From: an uncultured Desulfospira sp.
Lineage (GTDB): Bacteria; Desulfobacterota; Desulfobacteria; Desulfobacterales; Desulfobacteraceae
Assembly: GCA_963663165.1 (NCBI GenBank)
Contig: OY760175.1
Span: forward strand, 6,624,001 to 6,688,000
Reading direction: 5' to 3'
DNA length: 64,000 bases
The position numbers and the translations under genes were made by a program. Under the pieces are notes generated by a model. It saw only the letters and a program-made list of their open reading frames with translations, did not search any database and was not told the origin of the DNA. The first letter of the stretch is position 1, and each line of letters opens with the position of its first letter. Shown piece after piece: positions 17,094 to 25,822 of the stretch.

Positions 17094-17714
17094 TTGATCA
17101 TAAAAAAACTTGAAGTCGGGCCGATCATGGCAAATTGCTATATCCTGGGATGCGAACAAACCAAACAAGCCGCCGTTATAGATCCCGGAGACGATGCAGA
17201 CCGGATTCTCATGGAACTTGCCAAATCGGAACTGAAAGTCACATATCTGATCAATACCCATGGCCATTTTGACCATGTAGGGGCCAATAAGCGGATGAAA
17301 GAGGCCACCGGCGCCACCCTGGCCATTCACCCCGGGGACGAACCCATGCTGGGAAAGCTTTCCAAATCAGCTGCCATGTTCGGCTTAGCGGCAGAGAACT
17401 CCCCCGGGCCCGACATGCTGCTCAATGATGGGGATGAGGTGTCATTTGGCGAGATCACCCTCAAAGTCATCCATACCCCGGGCCATTCAGAGGGCGGCAT
17501 CTGTCTGTATATCCCGGGCTGTGTGTTTGCAGGAGATACCCTGTTTTACGGCTCTATCGGCCGGACAGACCTTCCCGGAGGGGATTATGACCTGCTGATT
17601 TCCAGCATCAAAACCAAGCTTTTCAGTCTTCCTGACGATACGGTCGTTTACCCCGGCCATGGCCCTGCAACCCAGATCGGAAAAGAAAAAATAATCAACC
17701 CGTTTCTTTCATGA
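17094..17714 (+). CDS. MBL-fold metallo-hydrolase (glyoxalase II-like)
   Basis: THGHFDHVG, HTPGHS, GDTLF and PGHG motifs; TTG start with a GGAG RBS. Confidence 0.92.
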   Translation: MIIKKLEVGPIMANCYILGCEQTKQAAVIDPGDDADRILMELAKSELKVTYLINTHGHFDHVGANKRMKEATGATLAIHPGDEPMLGKLSKSAAMFGLAAENSPGPDMLLNDGDEVSFGEITLKVIHTPGHSEGGICLYIPGCVFAGDTLFYGSIGRTDLPGGDYDLLISSIKTKLFSLPDDTVVYPGHGPATQIGKEKIINPFLS

Positions 17715-19957
17715 GCCACATCATCCAGTCCCTGCCGGTGATCAAAGAAATCCAGCAGGAACATATCGGGCTTGATTTATCCTTTGAACAGGCCGCTTCT
17801 GTGTTTGCCAATGACCCCGGCACTGTGGTTCTGCTGTCCGGCTCAGCCCTGGATTGTTCCCGATACCATATCCTGGGCGCTGATCCCTGGCTTGAGCTGA
17901 GGGGCAGGGGGGATGCCTTTTTTCTTTGCCTCCAGGGACAGACCTACCGGGTGGACAAGGATATCTTTGCCTTTTTAAATGACCTCTTAGGCCACTTTAA
18001 ATGTGTTTCCTCCGCAAGTTCTGACCTGCCCATTGACGCCGGGCTTTTAGGTTATTTTGCCTATGACTTAAAAGACCGGCTTGAAGAGTTGCCCAAGACA
18101 TGCCGGGATACCGGGCTGCCGGATCTGGTCTTATATGCCCCGTCGTTTATCCTGGTCCAGGACCGGTTGACGGCCAAAACGGTTTTGTCCATTCCGGTTT
18201 TGAGTACGGCTGATTCAAAACCCCCCATCCGCCAGGTCAGAGAAAAGGTGTTGGACAGGCTTGCCGGGTATCAGCCCGGCAAAACAGCCCCATCTTTTTG
18301 TGTGGGCCGTGACGGGCTGACGTCAAGCTATACCAAACCTGAGTATGTAGCGGCCGTAAACCGGATTATTCAATATTTAAAAGAAGGGGATATTTACCAG
18401 GCCAACCTTTCCCAGCGGTTTGAAACCCGGTTTAGAGGGGATGCCTATGCCCTTTTTTTAGAGTTGTATAAACAAAATCCCGCCCCCTTTTTTTCCTTTA
18501 TCCATGCCGGTGACCATGACATTGTCTCCACCTCGCCGGAACGGTTTATCAAGGTTTCAGGGACCCATATTGAAACCCGGCCCATCAAGGGGACCATCAG
18601 CCGGGGAAAGACAACGGCGCAGGACGAGCAGAACAGCCGGCTCCTGACATCAAGCCTGAAGGATGATGCTGAGCTGACCATGATTGTGGATCTCATGCGA
18701 AACGACATCTCACGGGTGGCCCGGCATGAATCCGTAAAGGTGGTGGAACATAAACGGCTGGAACCCTACGACAATGTGTTTCATCTGGTCTCTGTGGTGG
18801 AGGGGGAGCTGTTGCCCGGCAAAACCTGTGTGGACCTGCTCAAAGCGGTTTTCCCCGGCGGTTCCATCACCGGGTGCCCCAAAATCCGGTCCATGGAAAT
18901 CATTGATGAACTCGAATCGGTGCGCCGGCATGTGTATACCGGGTCCATCGGATATGTCAGCTTTCATGGCACCATGGACCTTTCCATTGCCATCCGGACG
19001 GCCACCATCAAGGGGGACACCCTTTGTTTTTCCGTGGGCGGCGGGATTGTCTATGATTCAGATCCCCTGCAGGAGTTTCAGGAAACCCTGGACAAGGGCC
19101 GGACCTTTCTGGATGTCCTTTCCCGGGCCGGAACGGAAAACGGCCGCCCCCGGGCCAGGGCCTGGGTGGACGGCAAAATAATAGATCAGGAAAAGGCCGT
19201 GATTCCGGCAGGAATTTCAGGGTTCCAGTACGGGGCCGGCCTGTTTGAAACCATCCGGGTGGAAAAAGGGCAGCCTGCCTTTTTGCATGAGCATGTCAGG
19301 CGCATGGAAACCGGCTGGCAGGCCCTGTTTAAATCCGATCCCCCGGATATTTCCTGGTCCTGGGTGGTGGACCTGCTGATCCGGGAAAATGGTTTTGAAA
19401 CGGTAACTGCGGCGGTTAAACTGATCATCTGTTTAACAGAGGATCATGATGGCCCCCGGCCATTTTGTGCCGCCTTTGCCCGGGAATATAAAAAACGGCC
19501 GGCCCTTGCGTTTAAACCGGGGCTGGACCTGGTTACCTATCCCCATCCGCGGCAGACCCCCCTGGCCGCTTACAAGACCTTAAATTACCTTTACTATGAC
19601 CAGGCCGGACGGTTTGCCCTGGATAACGACGCTGATGAGGCCCTGATCCTCAACCCGGACCATACCGTGTCCGAGACCAATACATGCAGCATACTGATCC
19701 GGGAAAATCAAAAGATCGTTGTTCCCGTTTCCGACCATGCCCTGGACGGGGTGACCCGGAAAGTTTTGGTCAACGGGTTGAAGAATGCCGGATATGAGGT
19801 GATTTCACGGCCTATCCCCTTATCTGAGTTTGTTTCCTGTTCTGATATCATCCTGACCAATGCCCTGATGGGGGCGGTTCCTGTCTGCCATGTGGACGGC
19901 CGCCAAATTGACTGTGATCTTGAGTTTTGCCATGAGCTCAATCGCCTTCTGGAATAA
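17711..19957 (+). CDS. pabB: Aminodeoxychorismate synthase component I fused to a class IV aminotransferase / ADC lyase domain
   Basis: Chorismate-binding motifs (SPERF, TRPIKGT, MIVDLMRND, FPGGSITGCPK), then a PabC-like domain (YGAGLFETIR, KTLNY, DEALILN, LDGVTR). Confidence 0.88.
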   Translation: MSHIIQSLPVIKEIQQEHIGLDLSFEQAASVFANDPGTVVLLSGSALDCSRYHILGADPWLELRGRGDAFFLCLQGQTYRVDKDIFAFLNDLLGHFKCVSSASSDLPIDAGLLGYFAYDLKDRLEELPKTCRDTGLPDLVLYAPSFILVQDRLTAKTVLSIPVLSTADSKPPIRQVREKVLDRLAGYQPGKTAPSFCVGRDGLTSSYTKPEYVAAVNRIIQYLKEGDIYQANLSQRFETRFRGDAYALFLELYKQNPAPFFSFIHAGDHDIVSTSPERFIKVSGTHIETRPIKGTISRGKTTAQDEQNSRLLTSSLKDDAELTMIVDLMRNDISRVARHESVKVVEHKRLEPYDNVFHLVSVVEGELLPGKTCVDLLKAVFPGGSITGCPKIRSMEIIDELESVRRHVYTGSIGYVSFHGTMDLSIAIRTATIKGDTLCFSVGGGIVYDSDPLQEFQETLDKGRTFLDVLSRAGTENGRPRARAWVDGKIIDQEKAVIPAGISGFQYGAGLFETIRVEKGQPAFLHEHVRRMETGWQALFKSDPPDISWSWVVDLLIRENGFETVTAAVKLIICLTEDHDGPRPFCAAFAREYKKRPALAFKPGLDLVTYPHPRQTPLAAYKTLNYLYYDQAGRFALDNDADEALILNPDHTVSETNTCSILIRENQKIVVPVSDHALDGVTRKVLVNGLKNAGYEVISRPIPLSEFVSCSDIILTNALMGAVPVCHVDGRQIDCDLEFCHELNRLLE

Positions 19958-19991
19958 GCGCCTGAAATGCCCTGCCGGCTATTTCAGGTGC
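19958..19991 (+). terminator. Hairpin after the pabB fusion (possible terminator or processing stem)
   Basis: GCGCCTGAAAT ... ATTTCAGGTGC inverted repeat directly after the stop; no U-tract. Confidence 0.4.
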
Positions 19992-20187
19992 TGCAGGGAA
20001 ACGGCTTTAAAGCCTGAAGAACTGAAAACAGCACCAGCCATCCTCTAAACTTAATTATTTGGTAATGGTCTAAAGGGAGGATTCCTGTATATGGCACTTG
20101 AATTTCAGACCGATTCCATATAATCTGGCATGCAAAACCGGACACTGATTTTGCCTTAAATTGTAATTTTCATAGAGAGTAAAGCAG

Positions 20188-20895
20188 ATGAAAAAAGTAT
20201 GGATAGCCTTGGTGGTTTTTTTCGGGCTGATATCTTTTCTGCCGATGTGCTGGGCCGGGCCAAAGGCAGTCTTTGTTGAGCCCGTGTTTGAGTTTGATCC
20301 CCTGATTGAAGGGCAGAGCGTCACCCATCAGTTTGTTGTTAAAAACCAGGGGGACACGCCCCTGAATATCATCAAGGTGTCACCGCCTTGAGGGTGTGAC
20401 AGCCGTTCTTATGACAAGCAGATTCCCCCGGGCGGGGAAGGAAAAATTGAAATCGGATTTAAAACCGGCGGATACGGCGGAAGAGCCCTGAAGAAAAGAA
20501 TTCAGGTTCTTACCAATGATCCGGACCAGACCAAGGTGGTGTTGACCATTACCGGCCAGGTTGACAGTGTGGCCGAAGTAAAACCGAGAACTACGGTCCG
20601 CATGAGCGGCGCCCCCGGGGATACGCTCGAATCCGTAGTCACCATTACCCCGGCTGAAAAATATAATTTTTCAATCACCGGGATTACCCAGAGGCAGAAT
20701 CAGAACATCACCGCCGAACTGATCAAACCCGGTGAAAATGACCGGACCTGGAAGGTAAAATTTAAAAGTACGTCACAGACGGCCCAGGACCTTTTTGATG
20801 TATTTACCTTGAAAACCGACAGCTCGTACAAGCCCAAAATTGTCATCAGAGCCTATGTGAGTTTTCGGGATAAAAACAAACCTGAAAAATCCTGA
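20188..20895 (+). CDS. Secreted DUF1573-like Ig-fold protein, probable selenoprotein (in-frame TGA at 20389-20391; U-G-C motif), 235 aa
   Basis: ORFs 20188-20391 and 20536-20895 share a frame. Read-through gives ...KNQGDTPLNIIKVSPP-U-GCDSRSYDKQIPPGGEGKIEIGFKTGGYGGRALKKRIQVLTNDPDQTKVVLTITGQV..., a continuous DUF1573-type pattern whose motif is normally C-G-C. N-terminal signal peptide present. Confidence 0.78.
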
Positions 20896-20930
20896 TCACC
20901 AAAAATTCAGATAGAAAGGGACGGGTTCAG

Positions 20931-21572
20931 ATGAACCGGATGAAAAATGCCTCAGGGATCAAGGCCGTAATTTTTGACTGTGACGGGGTGATGTTTGATA
21001 CGGCCCAGGCCAACCGGAAATTTTACGATGAGGTGTTGGAAAATTTTGGAAAACCCCCCATGGATCAGGACCAGTTTGAAAAGGCCCACATGATGACGGT
21101 GGCCGATGCCATTGCCATGCTGTTCCCTGAGATGGAAGACAGGGTTCCGGTGTTTAAATGTATGAAGGGCATTGGTTATTTTAAATTTATTCCGTACATG
21201 AAAATGGAGGACGGACTGATCCCCCTGCTGGAGACCATAAAATCCAGGGGCTGGATCAGGGGCATTGCCACCAACCGGACCAATACCATGGATACGGTTT
21301 TATCTGACTGGCATTTAGAGCCTCATTTTGATGTGGTGGTCACGGCAAGGGATGTAAAAAACCCCAAGCCGGCCCCGGACCAGCTGCTCAAGATCATGGA
21401 GCAATACGCCTTTGGTCCTGAAGAGATGGTGTTTTTAGGGGACACGGTGTATGACCAGATGGCAGCCAACGCCGCCGGGGTGGGATTTATTGCCTTTCGA
21501 AGCCCGACACTTACGGCCGATGCCCATGTGGATACCATGGACCAGGTAAGACAAGTTTTGCAGTTAAAGTAA
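20931..21572 (+). CDS. HAD-superfamily hydrolase (phosphoglycolate phosphatase-like)
   Basis: IFDCDGV, ATN, KPAP and GDTVYD HAD motifs I-IV. Confidence 0.9.
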   Translation: MNRMKNASGIKAVIFDCDGVMFDTAQANRKFYDEVLENFGKPPMDQDQFEKAHMMTVADAIAMLFPEMEDRVPVFKCMKGIGYFKFIPYMKMEDGLIPLLETIKSRGWIRGIATNRTNTMDTVLSDWHLEPHFDVVVTARDVKNPKPAPDQLLKIMEQYAFGPEEMVFLGDTVYDQMAANAAGVGFIAFRSPTLTADAHVDTMDQVRQVLQLK

Positions 21573-21635
21573 TAAAAATCTTGACAAATTTTTTAATCAT
21601 CATTAAATCTTACGAGATTTTGAATGTGATTATTG

Positions 21636-21660
21636 ATAAATGTTTGGTTCAAACATTTAT
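21636..21660. promoter_or_regulatory. Perfect palindrome upstream of sat (candidate operator)
   Basis: ATAAATGTTTG-GTT-CAAACATTTAT, about 45 bp before the sat ATG and downstream of a TTGACA at 21581. Confidence 0.5.
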
Positions 21661-21704
21661 TTGGGTATACGTTAATGCAATAAAAACCAAAGGAGAATGA
21701 TTGA

Positions 21705-22982
21705 ATGTCTAAATTAGTTGCCCCACATGGTGGAAAAGGCCTCGTGATTTGTAAACTCGAAGGCGCAGAACTTGAAGCAGAACTTAAAAAAGCAGCAGGC
21801 TTAAAAAAGATTGAGATTTCCTCCCAGGTTAAAGGCGACCTGATTATGCTGGGTATCGGTGGTTTCAGCCCCCTTAACGGTTTCATGACCAAAGCGGACT
21901 GGAAGAGCGTATGTGAGGATTTCCTCCTGGCCGACGGCACATTCTGGCCTGTCCCGGTAATGCTCGACGCTTCCAAGGAAGATGCCGACGCCATCAACGT
22001 CGGTGATGAAATCACCCTGGAAAGAAACGGCGAAATCTACGCCACAATGAAGGTCGAAGAAAAATTCGAGCTGTCCGAAGACGAGAAAAAATGGGAATGT
22101 GAAAAGGTCTACAAAGGCCATGGTGAAGAGTCTGCAGACGATGTTTTCTGGAAAATTGCCATGGAAGACCATCCTGGCGTTAAAATGGTTATGGCCAGAA
22201 AAGAATACTGCCTGTCAGGCCCTGTAAAAGTCCTTTCCGAAGGCGAATTCCCCGAAAAATTCAAAGGTGTTTACCTGACCCCGACCGAAACCCGTGCGAT
22301 CATGGATGAAAAAGGCTGGGCAAACGTTGCTTCCATGCAGCTGAGAAACCCCATGCACAGATCCCATGAGCATCTGTGCAAAATCGCTCTGGACGTTTGT
22401 GACGGCGTTCTGATCCACTCTTTGATCGGTAACCTCAAACCCGGTGATATCCCCGCAGAAGTCCGGATCAAATGCATTGACACCCTGATCAAGGGTTACT
22501 TTGTTCCCGAACACGTTATTAACGGCGGATATCCCCTTGACATGAGATATGCCGGCCCCCGTGAAGGCCTGCTCCATGCCACCTTCCGTCAGAACTACGG
22601 CGTTAACAGAATGATCATCGGCCGTGACCATGCCGGCGTTGGTGACTTCTACACCCTGTTTGAAGCCCAGGAAATTTTCGATACCATCCCCATGCCCGCA
22701 GAAGACGGCAAACGCCTGCTGTGCGAACCCCTGAAAATTGACTGGACCTTCTACTGCTACAAATGTGACGGCATGGCCTCCATGAGAACCTGCCCCCACG
22801 GCAAAGATGACCGCGTTATCCTTTCCGGTACCAAACTGCGTCATGCCCTGTCCAACAACGAACCGGTTGTTGATCACTTCGGCCGTGAAGAAGTTCTGGT
22901 TATCCTCAGAGAGTACTATGCCAGCCTGACCGAAAAGGTTGAAGTAAAACTGCAAAGCCACGCAGAAGGCACCAAGATGTAG
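21705..22982 (+). CDS. sat: Sulfate adenylyltransferase (dissimilatory type)
   Basis: [38 protein letters not shown] and LSGTKLR motifs; biased codon usage typical of a highly expressed gene. Confidence 0.98.
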
Positions 22983-23081
22983 CAAGAACTATTAGCTGTT
23001 AGCGATTAGCAGTTAGCTTTTCAAAGAAGTCATGAACGAAGCTGATTTTAAAAGCCGCTTCGTTCATGGCGGTTCATAAAG

Positions 23082-23124
23082 AAAACGGCCTTTCCCCGAA
23101 AAGGGGGGAAGGCCGTTTTTGTTT
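23082..23124 (+). terminator. Rho-independent terminator of sat
   Basis: AAAACGGCCTTTCCCC-GAAAA-GGGGGGAAGGCCGTTTTTGTTT; preceded by a second 12-bp hairpin at 23031-23068. Confidence 0.85.
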
Positions 23125-23235
23125 ATAACGGCCATACCCTAAAGGGCAGAAACCGGGGCCGCTTTGGTTATCCAACCAAGAGCCGCCCACAACAAATATT
23201 GAAAGTCTTTTTAGGTTGTTAGTGAGACTTTTTTA
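23124..23235 (-). repeat. Family-A two-hairpin repeat (reverse copy with a small insertion)
   Basis: Reverse complement reads AAAGTCTCACTAAC...AAGACTTTCAATATTTGTTGTGGGCGGCTCTTGGTTGGATAACCAA...GGCCGTTATA. Confidence 0.85.
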
Positions 23236-23285
23236 TGAAACATCATGAAGAGCATATCTCCCAATGCCTGACCCTGTCCGTTACT

Positions 23286-23466
23286 CTCTGTGAAGTTTGG
23301 CGCAGCCAAACCTTAAGTGTCCTCTGTGGTTTAAAAACATGAAATCCCAAAGGGATTGAAAGGTTTTTCTTGAAATTCCTGGTTTGTGAAATCAGCGGGC
23401 TTCGCCCGCATTTTCTATTTAACCACAGAGAGAATAGAGGTTTGGCTTGCGCCAAACTACACAGAG
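23286..23466. repeat. About 180-bp inverted-repeat element with about 45-bp arms and an internal GCGGGC-TTC-GCCCGC hairpin
   Basis: Left arm CTCTGTGAAGTTTGGCGCAGCCAAACCT...CTCTGTGGTT matches the reverse complement of right arm AACCACAGAG...AGGTTTGGCTTGCGCCAAACTACACAGAG. Confidence 0.75.
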
Positions 23467-23539
23467 GAGACCCGCAAATAACATACCCGAAAGACATTGA
23501 ATGGCTAACAGCTAAAGGCTAAAGGCTAATAGCTAATCG

Positions 23540-25822
23540 CTAATTGGGGGGTTTAAAGTCCAGATCCGCTTTCACCACCGGAACCCGGGTGGAAAAGGCC
23601 TGATTAAAGATTTCAAGGAGTTTGACGTTCTGCTTGGCCATCATCACGCAATTGCCTGAAATGGCGTAAAACAGGATGCTCAGGCGGGTTTTTGAGGAGT
23701 CATCCCTGATCCGTTCAATCTGGTTGGTGTTGTAATGGTCCACCAGGTTTCTAAGGTAATGGAACTGGTCAACAATTTCATGATAATCAACGATTTCTTT
23801 TTTGGCCAGGGCGGTTTCCACCTTAAGAAAAATATACAGAATCACCATTTTAATTTCCCTGAGTTCCTGAACCTGAACCGGTAAAAGCCCCTTGTGCCGG
23901 TTAGATACATGCATGGAGGCTTTGATGACCGTATCCCTGTACCCGTCACAGATTTTCTGGAGCCTTCGGATGATCTGGTAGTAATTATAGGAGACCTGGT
24001 TGTCTTCTTTTTGCAGATGGCGCAGCACCTTGAAGATGTTGGCAATGATGATATTGATGGCGCTTTGAAAGTGTTTGACCCGTTTTCGCTGGGTCCTTAA
24101 GGTAATCAGATCTTCTTCGAACAGGGCATCAAAGGAAAGCTCAAAGGCATGGCGGATTTCTTTTAAGATCAGGGCTAAATGATCAAAGGTTTCGGAAACA
24201 GCTGTTTCAAAATTATCGATTTTTTCCAGGTGAAATACCCGGATTTCATTTTTATCCTTTTCCTTTGTTTCATGGCTTTTTTTATTTTTCAGAATCATGA
24301 ATGCGGCAAAGGCTCCCAGCCCAACAATTCCAAATCCCTTTAAATAAAAAATCACATTGGCAAATACAAATGAAACCACAAAAGCGATAAAAGCGGTCAT
24401 AAACCAGCCGCCGACCACCGTGAGGACACCGGTAACCCTGAAAACCGCACTTTCCCTTCCCCAGGCCTGATCGGAAAAGGAACTGCCCATGGCCACCATA
24501 AAGGTCACATAGGTGGTGGACAACGGCAGTTTCAGTGATGTGGCAAAGGAGACCACCGCACTGGCCACCATGAGGTTGACAGATGCCCTGAGCAGGTCAA
24601 AAGACGGGGTTTCCAGGGCATTGAGATTCCGGCTGCCCTGTAAAGGGAGCAGCCGGTTTGAAATCCGTTCCCGGACGGTCTGCCCGGCCAAGGATTTGAC
24701 CGAGTTGAAAAGGGTATCGAACAGGTTAACAATTTTCCTGGAAAGCCAGATGGACTCAAACCGTTCCAGTCCTTCGTCCTGCCGCCCCAGGCGGATTTCA
24801 GTCTCTGTGACGGTTCTTGCCTTTTTGGAGATCCACAAGGTAACCACCATGATAGCCCCTGCAATGAGCATGATAAAGGTCTGGGAATGTACTTTTTTGC
24901 TTAAGGCCGCCATGGTGACATGAAGGGGATCTGAAGAGGCCAGGGCGTTTTGGAATGCATTCAGACCGGCTAAGGGGACACCGATGAAGTTGACCAGGTC
25001 ATTGGCGGCAAAGGCCATGGCCAGGGCAAAGGTCCCGACAAGGACAATGGGTTTGAGGATGTTGATGTTGAACATGGCAATGAGAAATTGAAACATAAGG
25101 GCGGAAATCAGGAAAATTCCGAACATGATGGCCATGGAATTGGCTTTGATCCATGCAATGGTCTGTTCATCCATAAAGGTAGCGCCTTTAGCGCCCTTGA
25201 CCAGGATGAAAAAGCAGATGGCAGTCATGGCAATGCCGCCCCAGGCCGCCCCGTACCGCCGAAGCCTGTCCCGGTAATCAAAGGTGAAAATCATCCGGGA
25301 TAGAAACTGGACCACGGCCCCTGAAAAAAAGGCCACCACAATGGACAGCAGGATGCCGCCCATAATGGCCATGGCCTTGGCTGTATTGATATACTGCCAC
25401 AACCCGAGTTCCCCATTTGACTCAGACATGATCTTAACGGCTGAGACGGCCACTGCCGCACCGAGAAGTTCAAATACAATAGAAACCGTTGTGGAGGTGG
25501 GCAGCCCATGGGTGTTGAACAGGTCCAATAAGAGGATATCCGTGATCATAACGGCAATAAAGATGGTTAACAGCTCGGGCATGGTAAAGAACTGGGGATG
25601 AAAAATGCCTTTCCGGGCCACTTCCATCATGCCGCCGGAAAAGGTCACCCCGGCCAGAATGCCCAGGCTTGCCACCAGCATGATAATTTTAAACGGGGCC
25701 GCCTTTGACCCGATGGATGAGTTTAAAAAATTAACGGCGTCATTGGTGACGCCGACAATCAGGTCAAAAACAGCGAAAAGGATTAATATACCGACGATGG
25801 CATAGCATAGTTGCAGGCTCAT
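23540..25822 (-). CDS. Inorganic phosphate transporter (PiT/PHO4 family) with a C-terminal PhoU-like helical domain
   Basis: GVTNDAVN and FAANDLVN PiT signatures, two GLPTSTT/LPLSTT motifs, many TM segments and a soluble helical C-terminus. Confidence 0.88.
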   Translation of the reverse strand: MSLQLCYAIVGILILFAVFDLIVGVTNDAVNFLNSSIGSKAAPFKIIMLVASLGILAGVTFSGGMMEVARKGIFHPQFFTMPELLTIFIAVMITDILLLDLFNTHGLPTSTTVSIVFELLGAAVAVSAVKIMSESNGELGLWQYINTAKAMAIMGGILLSIVVAFFSGAVVQFLSRMIFTFDYRDRLRRYGAAWGGIAMTAICFFILVKGAKGATFMDEQTIAWIKANSMAIMFGIFLISALMFQFLIAMFNINILKPIVLVGTFALAMAFAANDLVNFIGVPLAGLNAFQNALASSDPLHVTMAALSKKVHSQTFIMLIAGAIMVVTLWISKKARTVTETEIRLGRQDEGLERFESIWLSRKIVNLFDTLFNSVKSLAGQTVRERISNRLLPLQGSRNLNALETPSFDLLRASVNLMVASAVVSFATSLKLPLSTTYVTFMVAMGSSFSDQAWGRESAVFRVTGVLTVVGGWFMTAFIAFVVSFVFANVIFYLKGFGIVGLGAFAAFMILKNKKSHETKEKDKNEIRVFHLEKIDNFETAVSETFDHLALILKEIRHAFELSFDALFEEDLITLRTQRKRVKHFQSAINIIIANIFKVLRHLQKEDNQVSYNYYQIIRRLQKICDGYRDTVIKASMHVSNRHKGLLPVQVQELREIKMVILYIFLKVETALAKKEIVDYHEIVDQFHYLRNLVDHYNTNQIERIRDDSSKTRLSILFYAISGNCVMMAKQNVKLLEIFNQAFSTRVPVVKADLDFKPPN

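Follow-up and report, generated by a model that had tools for sequence, protein, structure and literature searches.

We examined a stretch of 64,000 nucleotides from an uncultured Desulfospira sp. (the window), in which a gene on the + strand begins with an ATG at 20188, carries an in-frame TGA at 20389–20391 (codon 68) and ends with a terminal TGA at 20893–20895. When the internal TGA is taken as selenocysteine (Sec), the product has 235 residues and contains a U-G-C motif, as the first-pass annotation had predicted. The gene, its parts and its downstream neighbours are as follows.

20188..20895, + strand: predicted OS_HP2/DUF1573 selenoprotein gene, 235 aa, UGA read through (NF041425, 129.8 bits; PF07610, E 4.7e-20)
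20188..20256, + strand: probable cleavable signal peptide, residues 1–23 (basic start, hydrophobic core, small residues at −3/−1; predicted cleavage site)
20257..20565, + strand: domain 1, residues 24–126, an ASH/PapD-like Ig domain equivalent to DUF1573 that carries U-G-C (Pfam, model, structure search)
20389..20397, + strand: Sec(TGA)-Gly-Cys motif, U68-G69-C70, in a loop leading into a beta strand (sequence, model)
20423..20439, + strand: candidate SECIS upper hairpin with a 6-bp stem, a 5-nt loop and GG at loop positions 2–3 (folding, family comparison)
20566..20865, + strand: domain 2, residues 127–226, a second Ig-like beta sandwich with no Cys (model, structure search)
20931..21572, + strand: HAD-family hydrolase, probable operon partner after a 35-nt gap (PDB 4rn3, E 1.4e-46; synteny)
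21705..22982, + strand: sat, sulfate adenylyltransferase, probably a separate transcript (NF003166, over cut-off)

The TGA at codon 68 is the sole interruption of a single frame, as had been claimed, and is followed by 167 open codons; the count of 48 stop-free codons between it and the GTG start of the second listed ORF (20536) is exact. The ORF list contains the two halves of the gene as ORFs of 67 and 119 aa, 48 codons apart, and we count the gene as cut in the protein collection too, because it is present there as fragments of 67 and 117 aa. The open frame alone is weak evidence for read-through, since the frame also stays open for at least 167 codons past 31 of 1014 true-looking TGA stops (ORFs of at least 300 aa, same genome); judged across homologues, it is codon conservation, not the open frame, that settles how the TGA is read. 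Contigs of two public runs (X1 and X2), which may be the source of the same DNA, matched this stretch with no differences. The closest orthologue differs from the gene by 24 synonymous and 12 non-synonymous codons, and the changes are mostly synonymous in both halves.

The read-through protein matched 59 of 61 related genomes, yielding 84 matches, 83 of which span the Sec column. This column holds TGA in 65 of them (own gene included), Cys in 16, another codon in two distant Cys-less paralogues (L051 and L054) and TAA or TAG in none. Adding loci from named genomes (the best 80 of 495 confirmed ones) and removing duplicates brought the sample to 148 distinct homologues, comprising 129 with TGA, 19 with Cys and none with TAA or TAG. 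Initial flags of TAA/TAG at this column proved to be terminal stops or to lie at other positions. In a phylum-wide sample, NF041425 was matched in 60 of 161 genomes; among 52 distinct copies from 70 fetched loci, 31 have TGA, 19 have Cys and two are misaligned, with their TGA two codons off. Cys forms arise repeatedly within Sec clades, with nine changes, at least four of them forced, in a quick tree of 79 rows in which 36 of 76 inner branches are weak.

The genome itself encodes selA, selB, selC and selD, the three protein genes scoring over their cut-offs and selC being present as tRNA-Sec, and selD has an in-frame TGA of its own. In three phylum genomes that have neither selA nor an over-cut-off selB (G064, G190 and G218), all four copies are Cys forms. 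Matches to selB were missing from seven of the 61 relatives, all of them drafts of 60–92% completeness, and five of these carry TGA copies. The conservation of the TGA column and the presence of the Sec machinery bear out the Sec reading in the first-pass annotation: relatives keep the TGA and Cys homologues exist, and we encountered neither a TGA confined to one genome, nor TAA/TAG in relatives, nor a lack of Sec machinery, which the annotation had named as grounds for abandoning it. The apparent stop therefore almost certainly encodes selenocysteine, and we are close to sure that UGA68 would be decoded by SelB and tRNA-Sec with the help of a hairpin 32–48 nt downstream.

The gene scored 129.8 bits against the NCBIfam model NF041425, 'OS_HP2 family (seleno)protein' (cut-off 100; 120.6 bits on genomic DNA), and 71.9 bits against the Pfam model PF07610 (DUF1573; cut-off 26.1, E 4.7e-20), confirming the DUF1573-like identity assigned earlier. 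OS_HP2 is one of six new families predicted in 2007 from Olavius algarvensis symbionts, where it had two Sec copies (PMC1976440), and a 'DUF1573 domain-containing protein, UGC' is listed in two reviews (PMC9312934, PMC13188914). We equate the reviews' entry with OS_HP2 because of the NCBIfam name and because both profiles match the same residues. Over both curated cut-offs, with Sec at the first Cys position of U-G-C, the gene is by its profile matches an ordinary member of the already catalogued OS_HP2 family. The family occurs in Sec-using deltaproteobacteria, and its named relatives are mostly Desulfobacterales. The copy studied here shows no family-level difference; it belongs to a subclade whose motif is flanked as P-P-U-G-C-D. 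The proximal of two hairpins described below, seen in most family members, is weak in this subclade.

OS_HP2 is near-universal in the order (59/61 genomes) and mostly Sec-encoded; gene callers cut our copy and proteomics databases can therefore miss OS_HP2 proteins. A literature search, mostly of papers outside subscription journals, found no experimental work on OS_HP2/DUF1573 selenoproteins; mentions of DUF1573 were confined to tables, and PMC8318568 had none. Export, the second Ig domain, the link to a HAD gene and the association with MauE, all described below, are absent from the portions of the earlier OS_HP2/DUF1573 descriptions that we consulted.

The candidate SECIS hairpin folds at −8.9 kcal/mol, with its loop 37 nt after the UGA. 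The bacterial consensus, as excerpted from PMC13188914, comprises a stem of 4–16 bp, a loop of 3–9 nt with a G in its first two positions, a distance of 16–37 nt from the UGA and an MFE of −7.5 or lower; the hairpin at 20423–20439 falls within these constraints, with its 37 nt at the upper distance limit and a G at loop position 2. Taken singly, the hairpin of our gene does not exceed chance expectation (z −0.35 against shuffles, −0.76 against synonymous recoding), because its Pro-Pro-Gly-Gly codons pair anyway. Across the family, where kin are not independent, a hairpin of −5 kcal/mol or lower is present in 63 of 65 Sec genes versus 5 of 16 Cys genes, with median z values of −1.50 and +0.17, respectively. 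Pairing extends to 81% of cells in 62 distinct ungapped Sec rows (without L053 and L076), a level reached by 0 of 500 shuffles, and 17 cells show double changes; the paired share in 15 Cys rows (without L052) is 56%. One slid control of the main register gave more double changes (37 versus 17 cells) and fewer pairs. These comparisons indicate that the downstream hairpin is selected across the family, while not being demonstrable in our gene alone. A second base-pair register considered for the same hairpin was no better than shuffles.

A proximal hairpin, at about +11 to +30, is likewise selected in Sec genes, with a median z of −2.11 versus −0.34 in the others, and is weak in our gene. Two tandem hairpins spanning +11 to +48 after the UGA are visible in L024 (1678–1731) and most Sec homologues; the proximal one uses clade-dependent pairing registers, and both are weaker in Cys copies. 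The tandem hairpins possibly form a two-hairpin SECIS, with a putative SelB-binding hairpin. Elsewhere in the same genome, in-frame TGA codons occur in two genes of the FlpD family, in two that encode molybdopterin oxidoreductases and in selD (G000:C1 427367–427735, 3151211–3151579, 1059713–1061722, 6425982–6426731 and 4859732–4860658); these genes have downstream hairpins too, with GG-led loops in four of the five.

An AlphaFold2 model based on a 66-sequence alignment (pLDDT 95.9) has an N-terminal helix (residues 2–16) followed by two domains that are all beta; U68 sits in a loop, and a strand starts at C70. The Sec-pathway signal peptide noted in the first-pass annotation is supported by inspection and by a crude hydropathy test: each of the 147 homologues whose upstream sequence was long enough shows a hydrophobic stretch at its N-terminus. 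From this signal peptide we infer periplasmic export. Domain 1 matched the Ig domain of VesB (Z 11.6, rmsd 2.0 Å over 96 residues) and the PapD-like domain of Hydin (Z 10.4, rmsd 2.1 Å over 97 residues), and thus shares its fold with the ASH/PapD-like Ig domains of Hydin, the VesB/VesC C-terminal domain and PDB 2qsv. The last of these, a Porphyromonas protein, gave a weak match by sequence as well (E 0.00076) and keeps the fold, with no Cys motif in the aligned stretch. To our knowledge, none of the Hydin, VesB/VesC and 2qsv Ig proteins is a selenoprotein. The Ig matches of domain 2, among them a domain of the S-layer protein SbsC (Z 8.7, rmsd 2.8 Å over 86 residues), are middling. Comparison shows the protein to be one two-domain Ig unit.

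The motif reads UGC in 129 of the 148 distinct homologues, C-x-C in 18 and CGV in one, and outside the motif the scanned region is free of Cys in 129 of the 148; this U-x-C site and the model support the Ig-fold protein with such a site that had been proposed. Conserved polar residues are few (H47, N53, T93, D111, T210 and D211). We found neither a thioredoxin fold nor a CXXC motif: the model is all-beta, the motif is U-x-C, and Pfam and NCBIfam scans returned no thioredoxin family. Like DsbA, DsbC, PDI and MauE, the protein appears to be exported and has a close, redox-capable residue pair, and the glycine-spaced U-G-C resembles the CGC site of MauE as excerpted from the preprint cited below. 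In contrast to DsbA, DsbC and PDI, it lacks the thioredoxin fold and CXXC, and it may work like them without being a member of their group; it is also predicted to be soluble, whereas MauE is membrane-embedded. Five matches had long fusion partners, none of them informative.

Several distant copies depart from this anatomy. L253, L255 and L256, from the wider phylum, keep the TGA without the +2 Cys (U-S-M, U-G-T and U-G-V occur among the group of L255, L256, L253 and L244), and L244 has adjacent Cys-TGA codons. L255 and L256 are short single-domain forms situated between an NrfD-type gene and a HAD gene. A subfamily with U/C-S/A-C motifs (L053 590–1773, L254, L261, P0014 and P0021) lies right after, or is fused to, a multiheme c554-like cytochrome, and L261 has a C-terminal cytochrome c domain.

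Downstream of our gene, the order of HAD hydrolase gene and then sat is as first described. A HAD gene comes next in 107 of 141 evaluable loci (104/124 Sec copies and 3/17 Cys copies), and the pair occurs outside the order too (L255, L256 and L266). The gap to the HAD gene is at most 20 nt in 69 of 94 HAD-linked loci and at most 0 in 28 of them; in our locus it is 35 nt, and a purine-rich stretch precedes the HAD start. By comparison, sat follows the HAD gene in 34 of 100 evaluable HAD-linked loci; among 81 clustered loci, sat is confined to the family of our genome, and other families often have priA upstream and no sat. A consensus promoter scan of the HAD–sat spacer returned no full site; nevertheless, sat probably has its own promoter, because TTGACA is conserved within 200 nt upstream of it in 32 of 36 loci. 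The position two genes upstream of sat, which the first-pass annotation had pointed out, is thus correct, but we reject the functional link that it implied, given the limited co-occurrence and the conserved TTGACA in the spacer. As far as gene order tells, the position of sat is lineage-specific, family-level synteny and not evidence for a role in sulfate activation. The notion that the HAD protein serves as a pyrophosphatase for Sat was likewise unsupported, with the PpaX model scoring far below its cut-off; a DHHA2 gene (family II pyrophosphatase type) is present elsewhere in the genome, in which no H+-PPase was found.

Copies not linked to a HAD gene lie near type II secretion, Tad, HdrA/Fdh-like, glycosyltransferase, murJ and cytochrome c genes. 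L058, L063, L064 and L080 are Sec copies that immediately precede the G, E and F genes of type II secretion; most of these copies have C-terminal extensions (313–387 aa as called). In L046 (4014–5696), tandem Sec and Cys copies precede the HAD gene, the Cys copy having weaker hairpins.

A further set of contexts connects the family with MauE. Seven paralogues lie in clusters with rhodanese and MauE genes (G010, G020, G032, G034, G059, G126 and G156). Most of the clusters in the first five genomes also contain thioredoxin, CcdA/DsbD and ArsR/ArsP/Acr3-type genes, and these five order-level paralogues fall into two separate starred clades of the quick tree; in G126 and G156, which belong to one family, the copy is directly followed by rhodanese and then MauE. 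In the 61 relatives, as read from tables, 5 of 83 MauE matches lie within 10 kb of a homologue. Phylum-wide, MauE is present in 41 of 60 genomes with the family versus 19 of 101 without it (OR 9.3, kinship ignored at depth), and the median OR is 12.8 with one genome per taxonomic family. By genome-size class, the ORs are 4.6, 14.5 and 3.1, that of the largest class not being significant (p 0.14). The single control family, BioY, gave an OR of 0.6. The single MauE of our genome is encoded far away from the selenoprotein gene; the genome also has three DsbA-like thioredoxins, with no match to DsbB or VKOR; DsbB occurs in 4 of the 161 phylum genomes.

According to excerpts of a recent preprint, MauE is a DsbB-like oxidase, the MauE of Desulfatibacillum (Desulfobacterales) replaces DsbB by way of a periplasmic CGC, and a thioredoxin-type intermediary has been suggested for it (bioRxiv 10.64898/2026.03.05.709764); a second, also excerpted, reports a potential of −0.167 V for the CGC tripeptide, similar to that of PDI (bioRxiv 10.64898/2026.01.27.701630). 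Our search found no literature joining MauE, rhodanese and a selenoprotein. For OS_HP2, predicted in 2007, the MauE context provides a functional lead: the association with MauE, rhodanese, thioredoxin and CcdA offers a concrete test of periplasmic disulfide formation or repair in strict anaerobes without DsbB.

We propose, giving it an even chance of being right as a whole, that the gene encodes an exported two-domain Ig selenoprotein whose Sec-Gly-Cys redox pair serves thiol-disulfide exchange or repair in the cell envelope. SelB and tRNA-Sec would decode UGA68 via the downstream hairpin, and the product would be carried to the periplasm by its signal peptide. There, Sec-Gly-Cys, the sole conserved reactive group, would most likely cycle between the selenol/thiol and selenenylsulfide states, in that Sec attacks and Cys resolves. 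The Ig domains would bind clients, allowing a non-thioredoxin type of thiol-disulfide exchange or repair of envelope proteins, and the pair would be recycled by membrane systems, with MauE (oxidising) or CcdA/thioredoxin (reducing) as presumed partners.

The general absence of other Cys residues, the MauE–rhodanese clusters and the co-occurrence with MauE speak for this redox role. Against it, our gene and most orthologues adjoin a cytoplasmic HAD hydrolase rather than redox genes, few MauE matches in the relatives (5 of 83), and not that of our genome, lie near a homologue, the co-occurrence loses significance among the largest genomes, the ArsR, ArsP, Acr3 and ArsM genes in the MauE clusters equally support a metal(loid) role, three DsbA-like thioredoxins already exist in the genome, and no redox relatives appear among the top structural matches. 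A narrower version, in which OS_HP2 would be a selenium-based, non-thioredoxin disulfide shuttle or isomerase with an Ig/PapD-like client scaffold, recycled by MauE in cells without DsbB/VKOR and expressed through a tandem two-hairpin SECIS, is speculative, and we would not expect it to hold in full.

The same selenoprotein might instead be a chaperone or scavenger in the periplasm that binds soft metals or metalloids (Cu(I), Hg or As(III)) through U-G-C, which we consider unlikely but worth keeping in mind. Two-thiol sites on beta-sandwich proteins do bind Cu or Hg, paralogues adjoin ArsR, an ArsP-type permease, Acr3, ArsM and a multicopper oxidase, and His47 is retained across 92% of alignment A1. 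However, the protein lacks a Met/His-rich site as well as a third conserved soft ligand, only U68, C70 and H47 being conserved, and the HAD-linked main lineage has no metal genes among its clustered neighbours; no copper-chaperone fold is among the structural matches listed. Also unlikely, in our estimate, is a structural role, with the Ig protein being part of the envelope, a scaffold or similar to an adhesin; U68–C70 would then be a stabilising bridge and a substrate of the MauE pathway, not a catalyst. The top structural matches are indeed non-catalytic Ig modules (Hydin/CEP192 ASH domains, VesB, PapD-type chaperones and S-layer), some paralogues precede type II secretion or Tad genes, and substrate status would also explain the co-occurrence with MauE. 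A passive bridge, though, hardly explains why costly Sec is kept in 129 of 148 copies, and the fold stands without the motif in 2qsv and in the Cys-less paralogues L051 and L054. We favour a catalytic Sec over a structural bridge because at least three distant copies (L253, L255 and L256) keep the UGA without the +2 Cys.

Two further explanations concern the UGA rather than the motif. Read-through could act mainly as a selenium-dependent gate on coupled translation of the HAD gene, a very improbable account that draws on the short or overlapping junctions (≤20 nt in 69/94 and ≤0 in 28/94 HAD-linked loci) and on the persistence of the gene–HAD pair outside the order. Tight gene spacing is, however, common in operons and hence not specific, Cys copies are HAD-linked too (L037, L039, L042 and L226), the gene next to 20 of 124 Sec copies is not a HAD gene, and in our own locus 35 nt separate the two genes, with purine-rich sequence leading up to the HAD start. 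That the locus is a pseudogene, a sequencing error or two separate genes is scarcely credible: gene callers do list two fragments and the hairpin is not significant in our gene alone, but the TGA is kept at one column across order and phylum, never as TAA/TAG, the break falls inside one confidently modelled domain and the Sec machinery is complete. A broken gene is thus already largely refuted.

Beyond the selenoprotein gene, the flanks of the locus show some features of their own. Upstream, a 748-aa ORF (17711–19957), kept in this position in the family of our genome, combines a chorismate-binding PabB-like part with a class IV aminotransferase PabC-like part. Downstream, sat is followed by a phosphate transporter gene on the opposite strand (23540–25822), and no apr- or qmo-like genes were seen right after sat in the clustered related loci. 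An Rfam scan of 19900–23600 gave four matches, all below the gathering score. The HAD–sat spacer holds the TTGACA at 21581–21586 and an inverted repeat at 21637–21659 with 10-bp arms and a 3-nt loop. Among 36 related sat leaders, 33 have a stem of 9–12 pairs, in most cases 32–49 nt ahead of the start; its arms have changed, G-U pairs occur, and the loop often contains GG. This sat-leader stem resembles a conserved RNA hairpin or an operator that would control sat.
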